The notes below the pieces were generated by a model, which did no database searches, was not told where the DNA came from, and was given only the letters and a program-made list of their open reading frames with translations. Shown piece after piece: positions 2,578 to 34,770 of a DNA stretch of 64,000 nt (its first letter is position 1; the number at the start of each line of letters is the position of its first letter). The stretch comes from Escherichia coli (GTDB lineage Bacteria > Pseudomonadota > Gammaproteobacteria > Enterobacterales > Enterobacteriaceae). Location: assembly GCA_025336685.1 (NCBI GenBank), contig GCA_025336685.1_4717.1; one strand, 5' to 3'. A program made the position numbers and the translations under genes.

Positions 2578-3858
2578 TCAGAAACGATTTACAGTACGTC
2601 CTGTCCATGCACTCAGGATGTTGTTACGTTCCATCTCAGCCCGACGACGTAAGCCGTTTGGTGACTGCGGTGCTTGCGGCATCCCCCACCCAGCAGGCTG
2701 CATACCCATACCAGGCCAAGCGGAATTATTGAACATCGTACCGTTACGTTCCGCAACACGATTCATTAATGTATCAAACGTGCTATTACCTGCCGGTTGA
2801 TTACCGCCGCTTTCCCATTGATTAGGTTGAACAGGTGTAGTTTTACCCAACAGGTTATCAATCACGTTACTCGTTGCAGCAGGACGCGGTTGCATGCCTT
2901 CATGTGCAGCTGCTGATGGATTTGGCTTAACCGTCGGCTGCGGACGACTGTTCAGCGTTACACCCATGTTGTATTTCGCTGGTGGAATCTGACCACGATG
3001 TTGGGTAATCGGCTCAAAATCCTCGACCCAGGTAACATCGCAATAACCGTTCTCTTTACCGTCGTACTTATCACCAAACAGTTTGATAAGATTGTTCAGC
3101 GGTTCCATCAGCTTCGCGAAGCTGTGGATAAGACAATCGAAATACGGAGCATGAGGATCGCTTGACCCAGCATTATACGTTTCACTTACCTCACCGGAGT
3201 GAGGGATAACGTACTCAACCAGGTTTCTCAGCATGTTAAGATCTTTCTTGGAAATCTCAACACCACACCAGTACGTTTTCTTATCTTTCGTGCTGATGTG
3301 TTCCTCTTCCATGAACGGGAAAGTAACTACCGCAACGCGGGTCATCTTCTTACCCATGTAGGTTGCGCCAGTACGACGAAGATAAATTTTAGACAACGTA
3401 TACGGTGTGTCACGTTTCAACCAAACGGTGACCAGTTTACCTAACGTCGTTAGCGTTTTATCGCTGGCATCCGCAAGGATATTGAAGAACTCTTTTTGCT
3501 TCGGTCCGAAACGTTTTGCTTCTTTAGGATTGATTGCGGTTTCAACCATCCAAATCAGCATGGAACACAGTGTGGCGTTAAAACGAACAACCATTGCACG
3601 ACGCAGGAACTGAAGTACTTCCGATTCACCATTCATCACGTCTTCACTTAGCGGATGGAACAGTACACGTTCGGCGAGTTGATTTCCGGTACGAACTTCG
3701 GGAACCGGCATCAGCAACGGCATGCTTTCCACGGTAGCGGCAACTGCAACAACTTTACCATCCCCATCTGTAAAACGATATTCTAATTCGTGGGCGTCAT
3801 TTTCAAAATAGTTAACGCTTTGCAGCGCTTTGCGATAAGCTTCAATAAGCTTCGACAT
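2578..3858 (-). CDS. hypothetical protein (426 aa) with Q/P/G/M-rich C-terminal region
   Basis: Long ORF; low-complexity C-terminus (GMGMQPAGWGMPQAPQSP); no catalytic motif recognised. Confidence 0.55.
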   Translation of the reverse strand: MSKLIEAYRKALQSVNYFENDAHELEYRFTDGDGKVVAVAATVESMPLLMPVPEVRTGNQLAERVLFHPLSEDVMNGESEVLQFLRRAMVVRFNATLCSMLIWMVETAINPKEAKRFGPKQKEFFNILADASDKTLTTLGKLVTVWLKRDTPYTLSKIYLRRTGATYMGKKMTRVAVVTFPFMEEEHISTKDKKTYWCGVEISKKDLNMLRNLVEYVIPHSGEVSETYNAGSSDPHAPYFDCLIHSFAKLMEPLNNLIKLFGDKYDGKENGYCDVTWVEDFEPITQHRGQIPPAKYNMGVTLNSRPQPTVKPNPSAAAHEGMQPRPAATSNVIDNLLGKTTPVQPNQWESGGNQPAGNSTFDTLMNRVAERNGTMFNNSAWPGMGMQPAGWGMPQAPQSPNGLRRRAEMERNNILSAWTGRTVNRF

Positions 3859-7088: not shown

Positions 7089-7182
7089 AACAACCTCTTT
7101 TCGCGGTTCCCTGTTGAAACGTCTTCTGTGACGTCTACCACAAAGGTAACATTTATGTCGCCTCTATGACTTTGTTCATAGA

Positions 7183-7200
7183 GGTAATATAAGCGTGAAT
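7183..7200 (-). promoter_or_regulatory. phage promoter, minus-strand core TATATTAC with extended consensus (attcacgCTTATATTACC)
   Basis: Plus-strand gtaatata at 7184-7191. One of five sites sharing ttcaSg-N-YTATATTACC with an A/T-rich upstream flank, all upstream of minus-strand genes. Core matches the early promoter element reported for phiKZ-like phages. Confidence 0.6.
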
Positions 7201-7330
7201 AATTTTGGATTCCAGCTGAGTTATCGCTCAGCATGCAAGGCATCCCGCCGAAGCGAGACACCTTGCACTAACGGAAAGTATTCGCGTTACCTTCTGAGTC
7301 TTCGATTCAGAATGCGAAGCTAAAGCATTA

Positions 7331-13325: not shown

Positions 13326-13350
13326 CCCTCCCCGCATAAGGCAGGGAGGG
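13326..13350. terminator. GC-rich stem-loop CCCTCCC-N11-GGGAGGG
   Basis: Inverted repeat between the 13366-14004 stop and the 12487-13302 start. Confidence 0.5.
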
Positions 13351-14257: not shown

Positions 14258-15669
14258 CTTCAGTTTAATTTGGTCGAACGTATTCCAATTTCAATCCATG
14301 CCAATCACCGCCTTTACTAATAGCGGTACTTATCGTAGTCGGATGCACTTTATGTTCTTCAGCAAGGGCGAATCTATCAGGATAGACTTTATGTGTACCA
14401 TCCTCAAACACCACCTTTACTGGGAACCTTTGTAATCCACCAGTTTTTGGTCTAGGCTCTTTAGGAATATATTTACATTCGTTCACATCGCCAGGATAAT
14501 TCCTTGTCCACCATGCTTTCCAACCGTTTCTGGAAAACATCTTATCTCCATGACATAAGCTATGACTTAATGTCGCATAGCTCACTCCCACCATTGTTGC
14601 CGCCATTACGGTACTTTCCATGTGATACTTGTCTCCATCGGGCGATATTAAAACCAACCCGCCGTAAATAACATACGACTTACCGGCATCTTCGGATGTG
14701 AAACCGACAAATTCCATTCCGTGGGTAGCCGCATCGTAATATTTCATCAACGGCCATTGTCGTGTAGTACGGAACCATTTTGAAATCTGGGTGTGTGGGA
14801 TACCGTAACACTTAGCCGCATCGCGCATACTGTAATGTTCGGTTATCTCGCCAGTTCTCAAATCCTTTATCCATACTGTTTTAGCTTTCCAGTTCAAGCC
14901 CGTACGATAGGCATGGTACGTATTTTGGGATTGACTCGTCCATTCAAGATTATCCAAGCGGTTGTTATCTTTAACTCCGTCAAGATGGTTACCTACTAAC
15001 ATTGATCCCTCAGGCAGCATAGGTTTTTCACGAAAGGTGGATAAAACAACATGATGAGCTGCTATATCTCTACCTTCATGTCTGACCCTTACATATCCTA
15101 ATACGTTAGTTTTTCCTACTTCCTCTCCAGTATAGGCATCTATAATGACACCCTCCACAGAAGCGGCAAGTCCGGGATAATCTTTACAATGGTAAAATCC
15201 TGGGAATTTTGTCTCTCTAAGTTTCATCTTCTCTCCGCTATCGGCCAACAGAGAGAAAACGTTCCTCGGAGGCCGACGTTTTCAAATTAAACTACGTTAT
15301 CGACTATATCTTCATCCTCATTGCGAGGAGTCTCCCGTTTGGGTCTGTGTTTAACAGAGCCTACTCTACTCGACATCGCGTCTTTCGATAGTCTGTGAGC
15401 ACACATCTTAACGAACATTCGTGGACTCCTAAACAGGTGAACATTCTTGTTAAGATGCTTCGCTGCGGGTTATTCCCGTCCTACCTCTTTTACCATACCC
15501 AGTTCATTACGCTGGCCCTCATCTATGTCGCCACGATGAGTTGGTGTGTAGTCCGATTACAGAAACTTCCCGTCAATTAGAGAGTTTTAACTATGTTCCT
15601 GTTACCAGAAACCCGACTCCGATGATATCAATAAATCAACGTAAGTTATTGATTTAATTGAAGAAACTG
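14258..15669 (-). mobile_element. group I intron (about 1.4 kb) with HNH endonuclease ORF in its 3' part, interrupting the beta-prime-like gene
   Basis: Minus-strand core elements: P/Q-like GGACGGGAATAACCCGCAGCG (plus 15461-15482), R-like GCTCACAGACTATCG (plus 15386-15399), S-like AAGATATAGTCG (plus 15301-15312). The 5' exon ends in U, the intron ends in G, and splicing yields a perfect NADFDGD. Confidence 0.75.
14265..15248 (-). CDS. intron-encoded HNH homing endonuclease
   Basis: HNH motif HHVVLSTF...VGNHLDGVKDNNRLDNLEWTSQSQN plus helix-turn-helix-like repeats (YGIPHTQISKWF, MVGVSYATLSHSL); sits inside the intron; TTG start with an in-frame ATG 7 codons downstream. Confidence 0.85.
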   Translation of the reverse strand: MADSGEKMKLRETKFPGFYHCKDYPGLAASVEGVIIDAYTGEEVGKTNVLGYVRVRHEGRDIAAHHVVLSTFREKPMLPEGSMLVGNHLDGVKDNNRLDNLEWTSQSQNTYHAYRTGLNWKAKTVWIKDLRTGEITEHYSMRDAAKCYGIPHTQISKWFRTTRQWPLMKYYDAATHGMEFVGFTSEDAGKSYVIYGGLVLISPDGDKYHMESTVMAATMVGVSYATLSHSLCHGDKMFSRNGWKAWWTRNYPGDVNECKYIPKEPRPKTGGLQRFPVKVVFEDGTHKVYPDRFALAEEHKVHPTTISTAISKGGDWHGLKLEYVRPN

Positions 15670-20281: not shown

Positions 20282-20313
20282 CATCCTCCCAACCCGTAAG
20301 GGAAGGGAGGATG
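20282..20313. terminator. stem-loop CATCCTCCC-N14-GGGAGGATG between convergent genes
   Basis: 9-bp inverted repeat between the stops of 19168-20262 (+) and 20329-22482 (-). Confidence 0.5.
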
Positions 20314-20328
20314 GGGTGGTGGGTTATG

Positions 20329-22482: not shown

Positions 22483-22557
22483 AAATCCTCCAAAAGTTAT
22501 TTAGTCTGTCTACATCATCTCGTATATCTGTTAAAAAAGAAGGACGGCATAAAAAGA

Positions 22558-22583
22558 ACCGATCCAGCCGAAGCCAGATCGGT
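22558..22583 (-). terminator. hairpin ACCGATC-N12-GATCGGT followed on the minus strand by a T-tract
   Basis: Minus strand reads ACCGATCTGGCTTCGGCTGGATCGGTTCTTTTTATG, a rho-independent-terminator-like structure in the 300-bp intergenic region. Confidence 0.4.
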
Positions 22584-22638
22584 TTAAAGGATAATAACTG
22601 ACTGAAAGATATCGATGATGTTCGTGAAACAAGATCTT

Positions 22639-22687
22639 CTCTCGTGTTACAATGATGCCAGATCAGAGGGAGGTTGTAACACGAGAG
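22639..22687. other. long stem-loop (14-bp perfect stem, 21-nt loop) in intergenic region
   Basis: CTCTCGTGTTACAA...TTGTAACACGAGAG inverted repeat read directly; sits between the promoter-proximal end of the 20329-22482 gene and the 22781-23194 stop. Confidence 0.45.
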
Positions 22688-22780
22688 ATGGTTCGCCAAA
22701 GAAGGAATAAAAAACACGAACCTATCTTATTTCACTGATGGCACTAACCACTCAAAATATATAGTACCGTATGTAAAAGT

Positions 22781-29790: not shown

Positions 29791-30615
29791 TTAACTATCG
29801 CTTTCTGATGTATCAACGTAGTTGAAAATACGATCCCGTAAACACTCATAACGAGGCAACGCACTAAGAATGATCATCTTCAACTGCATCGCGATCGATA
29901 CGCGTTCTTCATCCGATGCATCGTCTCCCCATTTACCCGGCTTAACCTGAATAGGTTCACGCGGATCCTGCGGAAATATGAAACTTAACAACAGATAATC
30001 CGTACGGAACTCCCACACTTCTCGGCCGTCGTTATCGGTTTCTTTACGCAACGTGAAGAGTTGACGTTCGGTGGTTGGATCCAGCATCAGCGGTCGACCA
30101 CGAACGATCTCCAGTTTACGTGGACTGACGAACGTCGTACGTTCAGGAAGGTATTTTTCAACATCATCCGTATCCAACAAGAACAAAATGATGTCGTCGA
30201 AATACTTCGGTGCGTACGTGTGTATCGGTTCGCCATCGCTATACGAAGAGATCTCTTGGAGTATTGGCGTCTTAGACGAAAAGTTCTGGCATGAACCACG
30301 AGTGATCGGTAAGGTGTTCCATTGATGTTCCGTAGACAATTCGACAGGCACCAACGGATAATCATCGATGAAGACCGCGCACGTTGTGCTAATGGGTATT
30401 CTTCCATCATTGTTCGGTTCAAAAACCAGACGTATCTTACCGGTAATTAACGCCATCTCATCTGGCATTAAGTGGCTCGCTGACCGGGCAAGTCTGAAAC
30501 CGCTCGCCTGTTTATAAGGTTCGGGTTTATAGCCACGGACAATAAGAGAGACATCCGCAAGTTCAACGCTCACGAACGCATCTTTGATGTCTTCATTGTT
30601 CGTCGTTAACGTCAT
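29791..30615 (-). CDS. hypothetical protein (274 aa)
   Basis: ORF; a TTTATTACG motif lies about 39 nt upstream on the minus strand. Confidence 0.5.
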   Translation of the reverse strand: MTLTTNNEDIKDAFVSVELADVSLIVRGYKPEPYKQASGFRLARSASHLMPDEMALITGKIRLVFEPNNDGRIPISTTCAVFIDDYPLVPVELSTEHQWNTLPITRGSCQNFSSKTPILQEISSYSDGEPIHTYAPKYFDDIILFLLDTDDVEKYLPERTTFVSPRKLEIVRGRPLMLDPTTERQLFTLRKETDNDGREVWEFRTDYLLLSFIFPQDPREPIQVKPGKWGDDASDEERVSIAMQLKMIILSALPRYECLRDRIFNYVDTSESDS

Positions 30616-31630
30616 TGTTCATTTTCTCCATTGCTACAAATCGTTCAAGTTCACGTAATAAACGCTCTTTTAAAGCAGGATCAACTTCCGGAGCATGTTT
30701 ATCACGATACCATTCGGTCCCGTTGTATTGCAGGCTAACATGCCATGTTCCTAACGGGCTTTCCTCTGCAGCGGCGATGAAATTCTTAACGCCGGTTTTG
30801 GTAGGATACTCCATGATAGGAACAGCCTGCTTCGGATCCATTACGGTAAGATCCTGGAAGTTATAATCCAGGAGTGTTAACGCGCGTTTGTCGCGTAACA
30901 GTAATCCGCAATCCAAGATAGTGAAATCAATACCCCAGAAACGTAACTTACCTCCAACCCCAACAGGGGTATGGCCACGATAAACCGCGAGATAAATCTC
31001 ACCTTTATCGGTTTCTTTGTTGTATCCTGCAATGAAAGCAGCCGTAATTAATGGCTGGTGTCCTTTCGCTAAGAAGACAGGGTGGTTATGATACAACCAG
31101 TCACTACGAATCAGATCGGTAACCTGACCTAAACGTGCTGTTGGTACCATCACCGATCCCAGAGTTTCATCAACAGGAACCTGGTAATATTCAAACAGAA
31201 CACCATCGATTTCTTCGGTAGCGTAAGGCGTACGTGTGGGATCGTTAAGAAGTTTACGGAGTTTTGTGTCGATTTCGTTAACACGGCTACCCTGTTCTTT
31301 CTCGCGGCTACCGATAACAAAAGCAACAAGATTACGTACGCTAACAAAAACATCATCTTTCTCGGTGTCGCTGAGATCAGCCTCATCCGGCATCGTTGTC
31401 CAATGTAACGGACCTTCAACGACCTTAAGCCATCTATCTTCACGTCCCGGATAAATAAAAGGCTTATGTACAGGAACACTGGTATGCTGAACCCGTAATA
31501 ACAGATTACATAACGATGGCAATGTTTTCTCCAGAGGAGGAACAATACCTGATGTAACGGAAATAACGTAACGATTAAGAACAAGAGAAGCTGAATAGGT
31601 GATGTTATCTAATCCTGGTAATTGATCCAT
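30593..31630 (-). CDS. hypothetical protein (345 aa)
   Basis: ORF preceded by a 300-bp AT-rich intergenic region. Confidence 0.5.
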   Translation of the reverse strand: MDQLPGLDNITYSASLVLNRYVISVTSGIVPPLEKTLPSLCNLLLRVQHTSVPVHKPFIYPGREDRWLKVVEGPLHWTTMPDEADLSDTEKDDVFVSVRNLVAFVIGSREKEQGSRVNEIDTKLRKLLNDPTRTPYATEEIDGVLFEYYQVPVDETLGSVMVPTARLGQVTDLIRSDWLYHNHPVFLAKGHQPLITAAFIAGYNKETDKGEIYLAVYRGHTPVGVGGKLRFWGIDFTILDCGLLLRDKRALTLLDYNFQDLTVMDPKQAVPIMEYPTKTGVKNFIAAAEESPLGTWHVSLQYNGTEWYRDKHAPEVDPALKERLLRELERFVAMEKMNNDVNDEQ

Positions 31631-31885
31631 GATAAGAATCCTTAGTATGTTTGATATGTTGTTTAATTGACATATTAAGTTTAAAAGAGGTTATGTTTTA
31701 CGTATTGTTAATAACGTATTCTTATTTCTATTAGGTTATGTTCTATCTAAAGATAGTAAACAGATATAATGCTCCCCACCTCCCCATTCTCCCAAGTAAT
31801 ACTGGCCTACCGGCCCTCTCCTTTTTAAGGGAGAGAGTAAGCATTCAGTATTGCTCAAATGAATAAGCAAAACAGTATAAACTTA

Positions 31886-31909
31886 CCGTCTCGGGATAAC
31901 TCGAGACGG
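31886..31909 (-). terminator. hairpin CCGTCTCG-loop-CGAGACGG with T-rich tail on the minus strand
   Basis: 8-bp inverted repeat downstream of the 31935-32288 stop. Confidence 0.4.
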
Positions 31910-31934
31910 CGTAGTATCTGTTTATCTCTTTATG

Positions 31935-32288
31935 CTAACAACCTATTTCTGCATAAACCTTTAACGATTCGAATACATCTCCCTTCTTTATCATCGTCTT
32001 GTATAAACGTGATTGAGCAATGATCTTTATCCATTGTTGCGGATCGTGTAAATTCACATTTTCAAAACGGGGTGGGGTATTATCTCCGTCGAGTCGGATA
32101 TACCCTAAGAGCAATCCCTCATGGTGTCCTCGACGTATTTCGATATGTGGTTTGAGGAAGGTATGATTGTCTGGTGGATACCAGCTTACGGTGTAATAAT
32201 GGTTTCCTGAAACAACGATTTCGTGAACGGTTTTTGTTTCATCGTCAATAATCGCGTTTACGCAGGGAATCATTAATTTTTGAAGCAT
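31935..32288 (-). CDS. hypothetical protein (117 aa)
   Basis: ORF. Confidence 0.45.
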   Translation of the reverse strand: MLQKLMIPCVNAIIDDETKTVHEIVVSGNHYYTVSWYPPDNHTFLKPHIEIRRGHHEGLLLGYIRLDGDNTPPRFENVNLHDPQQWIKIIAQSRLYKTMIKKGDVFESLKVYAEIGC

Positions 32289-33420: not shown

Positions 33421-33525
33421 TGCATTGCCTTCCGCGAGTGTAATCAGGAAGGTAATGTAGGTTTATTTTAATCTCCATTTCGCGATGATATGACAGTCTT
33501 TATTACGTTTACCATCTGAGGGAGC

Positions 33526-34770
33526 ATGCTCATGTCTTCTATTTTACAGGTGTTTAATGCGCATGCGGAAGGCATTGACATCGACGAGTATTTTGTTAAT
33601 CAGGTTATCCGTTACGCGACACGCTTCCGCACGCAAGACCAAGAACACATGCGTTTTTTCGGTGGGGTTCTGTTAGGTGTGCAGAAAATCCGATTCACAA
33701 CAAGACATAACGATATGTGGTTTTCCGACGTCTTGATGATGGATGAAGAAAGCTTACGACGCGATTTGAGTAAACTGCCCTTTTACAATACGCAGACCAA
33801 CCGTGTTGCCTCAAACGCATTTAACCTAAGTTGCTGTTGGTTGCTTTATGCGATTTTCCATAGCAAACAAATCAAAAAAGAAAAGGTTCGTGAGGCCGGG
33901 ATGCTTGCTGCAATGCAAGTCCTTCATTATAAATTCATTTGCGGTCTGGTAGCACGACGTTATCCTTATAACGCTGATCCGGCTATCGCTATTAAGGCGT
34001 ACGATGAGTTAACGCTCAAATCAGGTATCAAACGCATGAATAGCTGGAATGAGTACATTGACGAACGCTGTAATGCCATCATTGCGCGTAATAGCACACA
34101 TTTCAGTCGCTGGTCAACCCTGGAACCAGATAGTGTCGCCGAACGTTTTGTACGTGATGTGAATACCGGAATCCGTAAAGTTATCAACCGTATCACCGAT
34201 ACGTACTACGCGATGTACGAAGAAGGTAAGAAGATAGGCACGTCCTCTCAAACCGTAGAATTAGACGATGGTCTTGCTGTTCGCGATATTAAACGCAATG
34301 AAACCACTTACCGTCAATATCTGTTCGAAATCGCTTATGACCGGACAAGTTTCGTTAAACGCGAACTCATGGTCGTCATCCTCGACGTGCATCATACTAC
34401 CAATCTCCTATCCCTTGAGCGAGCGTTAAGCTATATCAGCGCTAACGTAGAGCGGCCAACAAAAGACGGAAAGCAGGTCTCTCAGATGTTGAGGCTTGTA
34501 ATGGAACATGCTATCGAGTATATCATCTTGAATAAGGTTGATATGCGCGATCTTACGTTCTTATTCTACATGCGTAACGTGTATACGTCTAACCGCACTA
34601 GCAACCCGAAACTGTTAGAGCTGCGTAAACTCGGCTCTGAAGTCATTAAGAAAGCAACCAACGCGAGAAACGACGCTGAAGCTGCAGCGACACGCACAGG
34701 TGTCTTTCTGTATATCCTGCTTCGGGTGTTTAGCCGCAACTATTACGTTCGTCGCGCGATGTCTCGCTAA
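33526..34770 (+). CDS. hypothetical protein (414 aa)
   Basis: Plus-strand ORF with GAGGGAG RBS; terminator hairpin about 140 nt downstream. Confidence 0.5.
   Translation: MLMSSILQVFNAHAEGIDIDEYFVNQVIRYATRFRTQDQEHMRFFGGVLLGVQKIRFTTRHNDMWFSDVLMMDEESLRRDLSKLPFYNTQTNRVASNAFNLSCCWLLYAIFHSKQIKKEKVREAGMLAAMQVLHYKFICGLVARRYPYNADPAIAIKAYDELTLKSGIKRMNSWNEYIDERCNAIIARNSTHFSRWSTLEPDSVAERFVRDVNTGIRKVINRITDTYYAMYEEGKKIGTSSQTVELDDGLAVRDIKRNETTYRQYLFEIAYDRTSFVKRELMVVILDVHHTTNLLSLERALSYISANVERPTKDGKQVSQMLRLVMEHAIEYIILNKVDMRDLTFLFYMRNVYTSNRTSNPKLLELRKLGSEVIKKATNARNDAEAAATRTGVFLYILLRVFSRNYYVRRAMSR

Follow-up and report, generated by a model that had tools for sequence, protein, structure and literature searches.

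What is carried by the 304 nt (31631-31934) that separate two genes of a phage in the 64,000-nt stretch of DNA analysed here (the window)? Outside one hypervariable stretch, the window is approximately 95% identical to Escherichia phage Goslar, and the 2.4 kb around the gap show 88.6% identity to this phage (vB_EcoM_Goslar). Goslar is a nucleus-forming jumbo phage of E. coli belonging to Chimalliviridae. The gap lies between homologues of Goslar gp208 (31935-32288) and gp207 (30593-31630), both encoded on the minus strand, and its counterpart in Goslar, 308 bp long, is without any annotation. An initial annotation made from the sequence alone had proposed that the gap could be a regulatory hub, with a terminator plus a promoter or operator, or encode a small RNA.

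Genomic context and related phages

Because both neighbours are on the minus strand, the gap is 3' of 31935-32288 and 5' of 30593-31630, in agreement with the initial placement downstream of the former and upstream of the latter. It is located inside a same-strand accessory gene cluster, made up of homologues of Goslar gp210 to gp203, and the gene order around it is preserved in all the relatives collected. No Pfam family was found for the genes flanking the gap, and PHROGs and PADLOC likewise returned none for the flanking proteins. For the neighbouring proteins, the sole PHROGs match was phrog_2921 (function unknown), in the gp211 homologue (33526-34770), and PADLOC retrieved the gp209 homologue only, with a weak score of 15 bits. 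Searches with Pfam, PHROGs and PADLOC detected no recognisable nucleic-acid-binding domain in gp207, and its AlphaFold model (pLDDT 33.6) is too poor for use. No tRNA or tmRNA was found in a scan of the window.

The homologous gap was gathered from eleven distinct related contigs representing four lineages, and its length ranged from 269 to 337 nt throughout. The Goslar type comprises Goslar, two IMG/VR contigs, a Goslar-like contig in a Salmonella assembly and the metagenome contigs ERZ1026852 and ERZ1643250. A divergent lineage (ERR11836920, SRR9161836 and JACXXQ01) has flanking genes that are about 80% identical in DNA; at their third codon positions, identity is 72% for gp208 and 58% for gp207. 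A profile search with gp207 retrieved one remote clade only, hereafter the distant clade (P0005, E 8e-55, and P0006). An alignment with related phages, which had been suggested as a check in the initial annotation, showed that a core and a gp207-proximal island are conserved, while a spacer and the direct repeat are not (Table 1).

Beyond these relatives, no match to the gap was found in E. coli genomes, and plasmids contained only one chance match of 25 nt. Searches of GTDB genomes and IMG/VR with 18-19-mers retrieved only chance matches beyond Goslar-like contigs.

Table 1. Position of the features in and around the gap, listed in the direction of transcription
Feature	Position	Strand	Remarks
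Early-promoter-like motif CTACATTACCTTCCTGAT	33443..33470	-	Upstream of the gp210 homologue; putative start of the cluster
Hairpin 1	31885..31910	-	9-11 bp GC-rich stem, arms 31902-31909 and 31886-31893
TTTATAC	31875..31881	-	One base off the TTTATGC trailing many intergenic hairpins of the phage
Conserved core, about 135 nt, single-copy	31741..31876	-	96% identical to the divergent lineage
Long imperfect hairpin, 85 nt, about 34 pairs	31783..31867	-	Inside the core
Hairpin 2, CTCTCTCCC..GGAGAGGG	31814..31837	-	Tip of the long hairpin
G-rich tract GGGAGAATGGGGAGGTGGGGAG	31772..31793	-	Gs invariant in four lineages
Palindrome CTATCT-TT-AGATAG (CTATCTTTAGATAG), 14 bp	31743..31756	.	3' end of the core
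Variable AT-rich spacer	31704..31740	-	Holds the distal repeat copy, 31733-31742
Conserved promoter-proximal island, 54 nt	31650..31703	-	Holds the proximal repeat copy, 31688-31697
TATG, candidate transcription start motif for gp207	31671..31674	-	G at 31671, 41-nt leader
Shine-Dalgarno-like AAGGA	31639..31643	-	8 nt before the ATG of the gp207 homologue at 31630

Length, composition and repeats

Initially described as the longest non-coding gap, the stretch does exceed all the other intergenic gaps in the window, the runner-up measuring 298 nt, with two exceptions. These are the group I intron gap (15228-15653, 426 nt) and the first 349 nt of the window, which remained without a gene call under a crude, ATG-only calling and were excluded from the ranking. 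The description of the region as AT-rich applies only to the gp207-proximal 110 nt (31631-31740, GC fraction 0.236); the remainder (31741-31934) has a GC fraction of about 0.41, the value for the whole window being 0.467. Compared with shuffled sequences, the whole gap folds with z-scores of -4.7 on the minus strand and -6.3 on the plus strand. Such strong folding is not unique to it, as the gaps 22483-22780 and 7089-7330 are equally structured.

The 10-nt direct repeat AGGTTATGTT was correctly placed at 31688-31697 and 31733-31742 in the initial annotation. As a notable feature, it did not hold up: a perfect 10-nt direct repeat arose in 9% of first-order Markov simulations of the region, and the distal copy is altered in Goslar (AAGTTATGTT) and missing from the divergent lineage. 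The repeat is, thus, a red herring. A long stem that would close the structured part (31757-31766 paired with 31915-31924) was also discarded, since it is not conserved and a perfect 10-nt inverted repeat appeared in 8% of the simulations. A search for repeats elsewhere in the window or in Goslar, with blastn-short and a covariance model (R1), found no other copy.

Hairpin 1 occupies the position of a standard hairpin module

The hairpin initially reported at 31886-31909 is present, with arms CCGTCTCG and CGAGACGG, and begins 24 nt past the stop codon of the gp208 homologue. It folds in the window with -16.2 kcal/mol (z -4.1), and its five sequence variants all fold, with energies from -15.6 to -20.7 kcal/mol. 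The alignment, in which 98% of the cells are paired, contains one two-sided change, from C-G to U-A, in ERZ1026852. Two-sided changes, thus, affect one out of 11 pairs, a value reached in 103 out of 500 shuffles, with few diverged sequences in the comparison. The loop was found as TTGT/ACAA and as TTAT/ATAA. It has, therefore, switched orientation between the arms and is unconstrained in sequence.

Hairpin 1 is restricted to Goslar-type genomes, the divergent lineage having none. Its position in the distant lineage, directly after the stop codon of the gp208-like gene, is taken by a canonical CU/GA hairpin followed by TTATGC. This module (TCCTTCCTCC..GGGAGGAAG plus TTCTTATGC) aligns collinearly with the hairpin 1 region. 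The sequence TTTATACTGTT after hairpin 1 aligns with TCTTATGCT of the distant lineage, and differs by one base from the TTTATGCTGTT that follows Goslar hairpins in the gaps 3501-3835 and 110415-110507.

CU/GA hairpins with TTATGC are the phage's own modules, found in the window, for example, at 13350, 20311, 46077 and 48689. Goslar contains dozens of such hairpins at gene boundaries, and 21 of its 68 strong intergenic hairpins have a TATG within 10 nt. Hairpin 1 differs from them in that its arms are not of pyrimidine-rich and G/A-rich composition. Moreover, TTATGC does not directly follow its 3' arm; TTTATAC is found 4 nt further on, with an A replacing the G of the module. As expected of a terminator, hairpin 1 is a GC-rich stem-loop located soon after a stop codon. 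No U-run was found 3' of the stem, where TAAGTTTATA follows with a maximum of four Ts per 8-nt window. The terminator scan did not call hairpin 1, as just four of the eight following bases are T.

A conserved core folds preferentially on the sense strand

Downstream of hairpin 1, the core and its counterpart in the divergent lineage are 96% identical; over 136 nt, they are separated by only five substitutions and one paired indel of 1 nt. Given the 58-72% identity at third codon positions of the flanking genes, this degree of conservation indicates strong purifying selection at the nucleotide level. The elements conserved in every lineage are ATTTGAG, GGCC(G)GTAGGC and, above all, the G-tract.

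On the sense strand, the minimum free energy of the core is -44.9 kcal/mol (z -3.4), with a well-defined ensemble, compared with -30.3 kcal/mol on the opposite strand. The same asymmetry was observed in the consensus fold of four distinct sequences obtained with alifold, at -35.4 kcal/mol for sense and -22.5 kcal/mol for antisense. The main element of this structure is the 85-nt hairpin, which folds with -33.2 kcal/mol (z -4.4) as sense and -26.9 kcal/mol (z -3.7) as antisense, and which retains the same architecture in the divergent lineage (-36.4 kcal/mol). It contains ten G·U pairs, nine of them with the U in the 5' arm, and this arm (CUUAUUCAUUUGAG) departs from a perfect complement of the 3' arm mainly through C-to-U changes. 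These G·U pairs would turn into A·C mismatches in a DNA cruciform or on the other strand. This one-strand-only pairing is our best argument that the selected form is probably an RNA of the sense strand. None of the 42 pairs of the core shows a two-sided change, in a comparison of few diverged sequences, and the six one-sided changes among the sequences are all compatible with the fold. In the absence of two-sided changes, the fold of the long hairpin is not proven by covariation. In the distant clade, the hairpin of the collinear segment is shorter and folds no better than shuffled sequences (z +0.4).

The second hairpin of the initial annotation (CCCTCTCC/GGAGAG) has the right coordinates, about 31814-31837, but is not independent, being the tip of the conserved 85-nt hairpin. 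It resembles the lower stem of the abundant intergenic hairpins of the phage (CCCTCTCCC..GGGAGAGGG), with the pyrimidine-rich 5' arm and G/A-rich 3' arm of the CU/GA module, including the CTCTCCC/GGGAGAG arms common to both. TTATGC is not found next to its 3' arm, where CCGGTAGGCC occurs instead. The modules are near-perfect palindromes, foldable on both strands and multi-copy. In contrast, the long hairpin is single-copy, more than twice as long as a module, and has its G·U pairs on one strand only and no adjacent TTATGC.

The G-tract has the form GGG-N3-5-GGG(G)-N-GG-N-GGG(G), in which the single-base spacers vary (A/U, U/C). Only two G3-G3-G2-G3 tracts exist in the 237-kb Goslar genome. The second, near-identical one (GGGAGGATGGGGTGGTGGG) is located in the window at 20307-20325 on the plus strand, where it forms a 3' extension of the gp190-gp191 hairpin. 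Since a near-identical tract is carried by a hairpin of the phage, the core has the appearance of a more elaborate relative of the phage's own hairpins, restricted to one strand. The tract does not contain a canonical G-quadruplex (four runs of at least three Gs with loops of 1-7 nt), as its runs are only G3-G3/4-G2-G3/4; the combination of invariant Gs and variable spacers is no more than suggestive. At the other end of the core, the palindrome is invariant in nine Goslar-type and divergent sequences and unrecognisable in the distant lineage.

Searched with a covariance model, the core proved to be single-copy in both the window and the complete Goslar genome, and no counterpart was found in E. 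coli genomes, plasmids or other phages. Rfam 15 gave no match to the gap at the gathering score. In E-value mode (up to 10), the best hit was an unrelated snoRNA model, with 21 bits against a gathering score of 88. Two sponge functions were considered and rejected: an anti-SD/ribosome sponge (GGAGGTG), whose motif is broken in the divergent lineage, and a CsrA-type GGA sponge, whose motifs are not conserved.

A conserved island precedes gp207

On the gp207 side of the core, the spacer aligns poorly, and a 58-nt insertion is found beside it in the divergent lineage. The proximal 121 nt, including the spacer, are unstructured (z -0.4). The island that follows shows only three to four changes in 54 nt relative to the divergent lineage, which points to purifying selection here as in the core, and its block TATG..ATT(T)AAACAA is still recognisable in the distant lineage. 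All four lineages share the TATG, which precedes the ATG by 41 nt in the window and by 45 nt in the distant lineage, and the AAGGA is conserved in the Goslar-type and divergent lineages. The longer motif TAATATG has 14 sites in Goslar, five of them in the intergenic 8% of the genome, and is, thus, enriched in intergenic DNA. One of the intergenic sites precedes gp202 in a very similar context.

In phiKZ, T-3ATG+1 defines the late promoters used by the non-virion RNA polymerase, the contribution of downstream sequence being undefined (PMC7598289), and one gene has both an early and a middle promoter (PMC8244752). By comparison with these promoters, the TATG island is a putative internal promoter of the phiKZ non-virion polymerase type.

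Phages of this kind each carry an AT-rich early-promoter motif that is conserved and approximately 10 nt long (PMC7598289). A de novo motif shared by upstream regions of the window and Goslar, TTTCACGnCTAyATTACCTnnnTGA (TTTCACGnCTA[T/C]ATTACCTnnnTGA), fits this published description. All of its 12 sites in Goslar are minus-strand sites, one of them in front of the early gene chmA. The best match near the locus is, in every lineage, found upstream of the first gene of the cluster, which appears, from this motif, to be driven by an early-type promoter upstream of gp210. The motif is absent from the gap in all lineages; in the window, the best PWM score in the gap is -2.8, compared with 11.6-40.8 for sites elsewhere. 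A sigma-70 promoter scan found no site in the gap either; such a scan is barely relevant to a phage with its own polymerases.

Interpretation of the gap and alternative explanations

We consider it about an even bet (probability of roughly 0.5) that the gap combines an intercistronic 3'-end or processing structure with a downstream internal promoter, both putative. From sequence comparison, we infer termination or processing at the hairpins, promoter activity at the TATG and the polymerase involved. As the transcript leaves gp208, hairpin 1 would form first, followed by the 85-nt G·U-rich hairpin within the core, and both RNA structures would end, pause or process the upstream message and protect its 3' end. 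Beyond the core, an unstructured AT-rich stretch would lead to the conserved TATG-type start, from which transcription of gp207 to gp203 would be re-initiated, by analogy with phiKZ through the non-virion RNA polymerase. With a separate start for gp207-203, the two halves of the cluster could be expressed at different levels or times. The regulatory hub proposed initially would, thus, be broadly right, based on a hairpin with a compensatory pair at the position of a standard module and on a conserved TATG island, while the direct repeat has no part in it. The alternative of a small RNA retains some probability, given a core of about 135 nt under strong purifying selection that folds best on the sense strand.

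Several observations run against the terminator-plus-promoter reading. Hairpin 1 has no canonical U-tract and is missing from the divergent lineage, the long hairpin lacks two-sided covariation and its distant-lineage fold has a z-score of +0.4, the loops and G-tract of the core are conserved more than a simple terminator requires, and the TATG motif is only four bases long. RNA-seq of Goslar has been published (10.1101/2023.09.20.558163).

As the conservation of the loops and the G-tract exceeds the needs of a hairpin, the main rival is a discrete regulatory RNA. The core would then be a stand-alone, stable non-coding RNA of the sense strand, acting in trans on RNA or protein of the phage or host. 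It could arise by release from the gp210-208 transcript or from a start immediately upstream, with the G-tract or the CU-rich tract as its functional surface. Nucleotide selection on the core that exceeds that on the flanking genes, in loops as well as stems, argues for such an RNA, as do the well-defined ensemble fold, the single copy matching no known family and the Gs invariant in four lineages; the hairpin plus TTATGC directly upstream in the distant lineage could start it. However, no conserved promoter lies immediately upstream, in a region that is replaced between lineages, and no terminator-like 3' end lies past the core. In the distant lineage, the fold does not reach significance, and the best complementarity to the 16S anti-SD (GGAGGTG) is broken by an A to T change in the divergent lineage. 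On balance, we regard a stand-alone RNA as unlikely, albeit worth keeping in view. Similarly doubtful is the suggestion that the core is an undescribed structured RNA of Goslar-type nucleus-forming phages, selected more strongly than the genes beside it, in which the invariant G-tract and the one-strand-only hairpin would jointly serve more than simple termination. Its possible roles include a trans-acting RNA, a protein-binding RNA or a G-rich pausing or R-loop element coupling the two half-clusters in the phage nucleus.

An antisense RNA would begin on the plus strand at AGGTTATG (31688-31695; TATG, G at 31693), traverse the core and reach the 3' end of gp208. The plus strand of the gap does fold far better than shuffled sequences (z -6.3; z -6.0), GGTTATGTT is the sequence that trails several standard hairpins of the phage, the proximal repeat copy is conserved across the nine sequences of the Goslar-type and divergent lineages, and hairpin 1, in its window variant, retains a G·U pair on the plus strand only. 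This reading is nevertheless improbable, since the ten G·U pairs become A·C mismatches on the plus strand, with the weaker of the two consensus energies, and the stem 31757-31766/31915-31924 behind its z-score is not conserved. Furthermore, the changes in ERZ1026852 favour the minus strand, and the start motif is not kept in the distant lineage. The G·U pattern bears in the same way on a DNA-level element, such as a transcription-primed (R-loop type) replication origin or a protein-binding site, as its strand asymmetry points to RNA rather than duplex DNA. Such an element would combine a promoter, a G-rich non-template tract and an easily unwound AT-rich region. It would account for one of just two such G-tracts in the genome, for the 110-bp stretch at 24% GC directly downstream and for the invariant palindrome, and the flipped loops of hairpin 1 indicate DNA forming or recombining through a palindrome. 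We rate it as very improbable, however, as there are no iterons and no turn of the GC skew at the gap, and the AT-rich part is the least conserved and tolerates the 58-nt insertion. We know of no characterised chimallivirus origin that could serve for comparison.

A small protein encoded by the core on the minus strand, of 33 aa (ATG at 31844) or 44 aa (TTG at 31870), is highly improbable. Both frames are open in all Goslar-type and divergent sequences, and the paired +1/-1 indel restores the frame; this openness is explained by G-rich composition alone. The start codon changes from ATG to TTG, neither start is preceded by a Shine-Dalgarno sequence and the AUG is buried in the long hairpin. 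No substitution is synonymous in the 33-aa frame and only one is in the 44-aa frame, which also loses its stop codon in the divergent lineage. There, a 42-aa frame on the plus strand has likewise lost its start and acquired a stop. The gap, thus, carries no coding signal.

A terminator-plus-promoter spacer is useful for annotation and is not a new kind of system. To our knowledge, the transcription signals of E. coli chimalliviruses have not yet been mapped, while Goslar is emerging as a phage-nucleus model. The analysis provides a testable map of one operon boundary, together with candidates for an early-promoter consensus and for a TATG start. It also describes a family of hairpin modules with which the annotation of these genomes could be improved, and one conserved non-coding segment. 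A discrete RNA in the core would join the small number of non-coding RNAs known from nucleus-forming phages; otherwise, the region would be an ordinary terminator-promoter spacer.

Comparison with known systems

The early mRNA of phage T7 carries RNase III processing hairpins between genes. Like these, the long hairpin is imperfect and conserved, has small internal mismatches and lies between cistrons of what would be one transcript. As in T7, it would leave a protective 3' hairpin on the upstream message. The likeness is one of architecture only, with no sequence similarity, and, unlike in T7, the message of a nucleus-forming phage would meet the host enzyme only after export.

The autoregulatory leader of phage T4 gene 32 consists of a structured element and, after it, an AU-rich stretch without structure that extends to the ribosome-binding site. 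The gap has a similar layout, with a structured RNA followed by approximately 110 nt of unstructured sequence at 24% GC up to the ribosome-binding site of gp207. Unlike the T4 case, gp207 has no recognisable nucleic-acid-binding domain. Moreover, as the conserved TATG start is probably located between the structure and gp207, the structure would be excluded from the leader.

The terminator-promoter boundaries of phiKZ-like jumbo phages, known from a phiKZ operon map with predicted terminators and TATG late promoters (PMC7598289, PMC8244752), occur in phages of the same family, with two RNA polymerases of their own. The gap differs from those boundaries in that its hairpin and TATG are about 210 nt apart rather than adjacent, with a 135-nt conserved structured segment between hairpin 1 and the TATG. 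It also differs in that hairpin 1 lacks a clear U-tract and that the gap is known here from its sequence alone. As at the phiKZ boundaries, a stable hairpin follows the stop codon and a TATG stands at leader distance before the next gene, and, as in phiKZ operons, the cluster has an AT-rich early-promoter motif upstream.

A candidate early promoter motif

De novo motif searching of Goslar-type phages yielded the consensus TTTCACGnCTA[T/C]ATTACCTnnnTGA, a candidate for the early (virion polymerase) promoter of this group. Goslar contains 12 sites, all of them on the minus strand, including one located 73-80 nt upstream of chmA, and no description of the motif for this phage was found in the literature searched. 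The distant Goslar-like clade carries a second strong match (22-25 bits; L025 6881 and L029 4881) within the 3' end of a gp206-like gene and thereby ahead of the gene that follows. Neither the window nor the divergent lineage, whose flanking genes are about 80% identical in DNA, yielded a counterpart at this site.

Coordinates of the recurrent elements, the intron and the endonuclease genes
Feature	Location	Strand	Remarks
Candidate early-promoter motif, 28 nt	window 12479, 19004, 47769, 7202, 33470 (first base)	all minus	
CU-rich/GA-rich hairpins	window 2546, 11890, 13350, 20311, 28605, 34952, 46077, 48689		
G-tract copy, GGGAGGATGGGGTGGTGGG	window 20307-20325	+	near-identical to the G-tract of gap 31631-31934
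Group I intron	window 15281-15660	-	Rfam RF00028, 50.3 bits
HNH/NUMOD1 endonuclease ORF	window 14265-15227	-	after the group I intron
I-TevI-like homing endonuclease gene	L025 1768-2412		Pfam I-TevI_DNA-bd, NUMOD3

Hairpins at gene boundaries

A stereotyped family of palindromic hairpins with CU-rich and GA-rich arms, such as CCCTCCTCCTTCCCTTACGGGTTGGAGGAGGG, marks gene boundaries in the window, often flanked by GCATAA..TTATGC, and is found at about 40 places in Goslar. Of 68 strong intergenic hairpins in Goslar, 21 have a TATG no more than 10 nt from their 3' arm, far above chance, which suggests that hairpin and TATG form one module serving as both terminator and start site. The long hairpin that separates the convergent homologues of gp190 and gp191 is extended at its 3' side by GGGAGGATGGGGTGGTGGG; this tract and the G-tract of the 31631-31934 gap are the only two of their kind genome-wide. 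Two other long gaps, 22483-22780 and 7089-7330, equal the 31631-31934 gap in fold strength (z about -5 to -6.6, minus strand) and enclose perfect hairpins of 15-16 bp.

Variation in and around the 31631-31934 gap

The loop of hairpin 1, the stem-loop that follows the stop codon of the gp208 homologue, was compared between the window (31894-31901) and the same site in three related contigs (L005, L006 and L016). Genomes that are otherwise near-identical carry it in opposite orientations (TTGT/ACAA and TTAT/ATAA), a pattern that repeated inversion of the loop between the palindrome arms would produce. One of these contigs, L016 (AAHLIX010000047.1), is a 34.6-kb Goslar-like phage contig in a Salmonella enterica Typhimurium assembly (GCA_007256055.1) and is about 96% identical across the gap. 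This points either to infection or contamination of the sequenced culture or to a host range of Goslar-type phages that includes Salmonella.

Within the gp207 homologue, positions 30900-31596, which encode its N-terminal two thirds, are only 63-82% identical to Goslar, against about 95% for the remainder of the 8.5-kb comparison. The segment is a local hypervariable or recombinant stretch of an ORFan protein, for which the AlphaFold model was unusable (pLDDT 33.6).

Group I intron and homing endonucleases

In L025, of the distant clade, an I-TevI-like gene lies between the early-promoter motif of the gp210 to gp203 cluster and the next gene; it is missing from the window and from L029. Elsewhere in the window, an RNA polymerase beta'-like gene is split by a group I intron. 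The Goslar annotation includes the same intron, together with a second one at 211817-212245.
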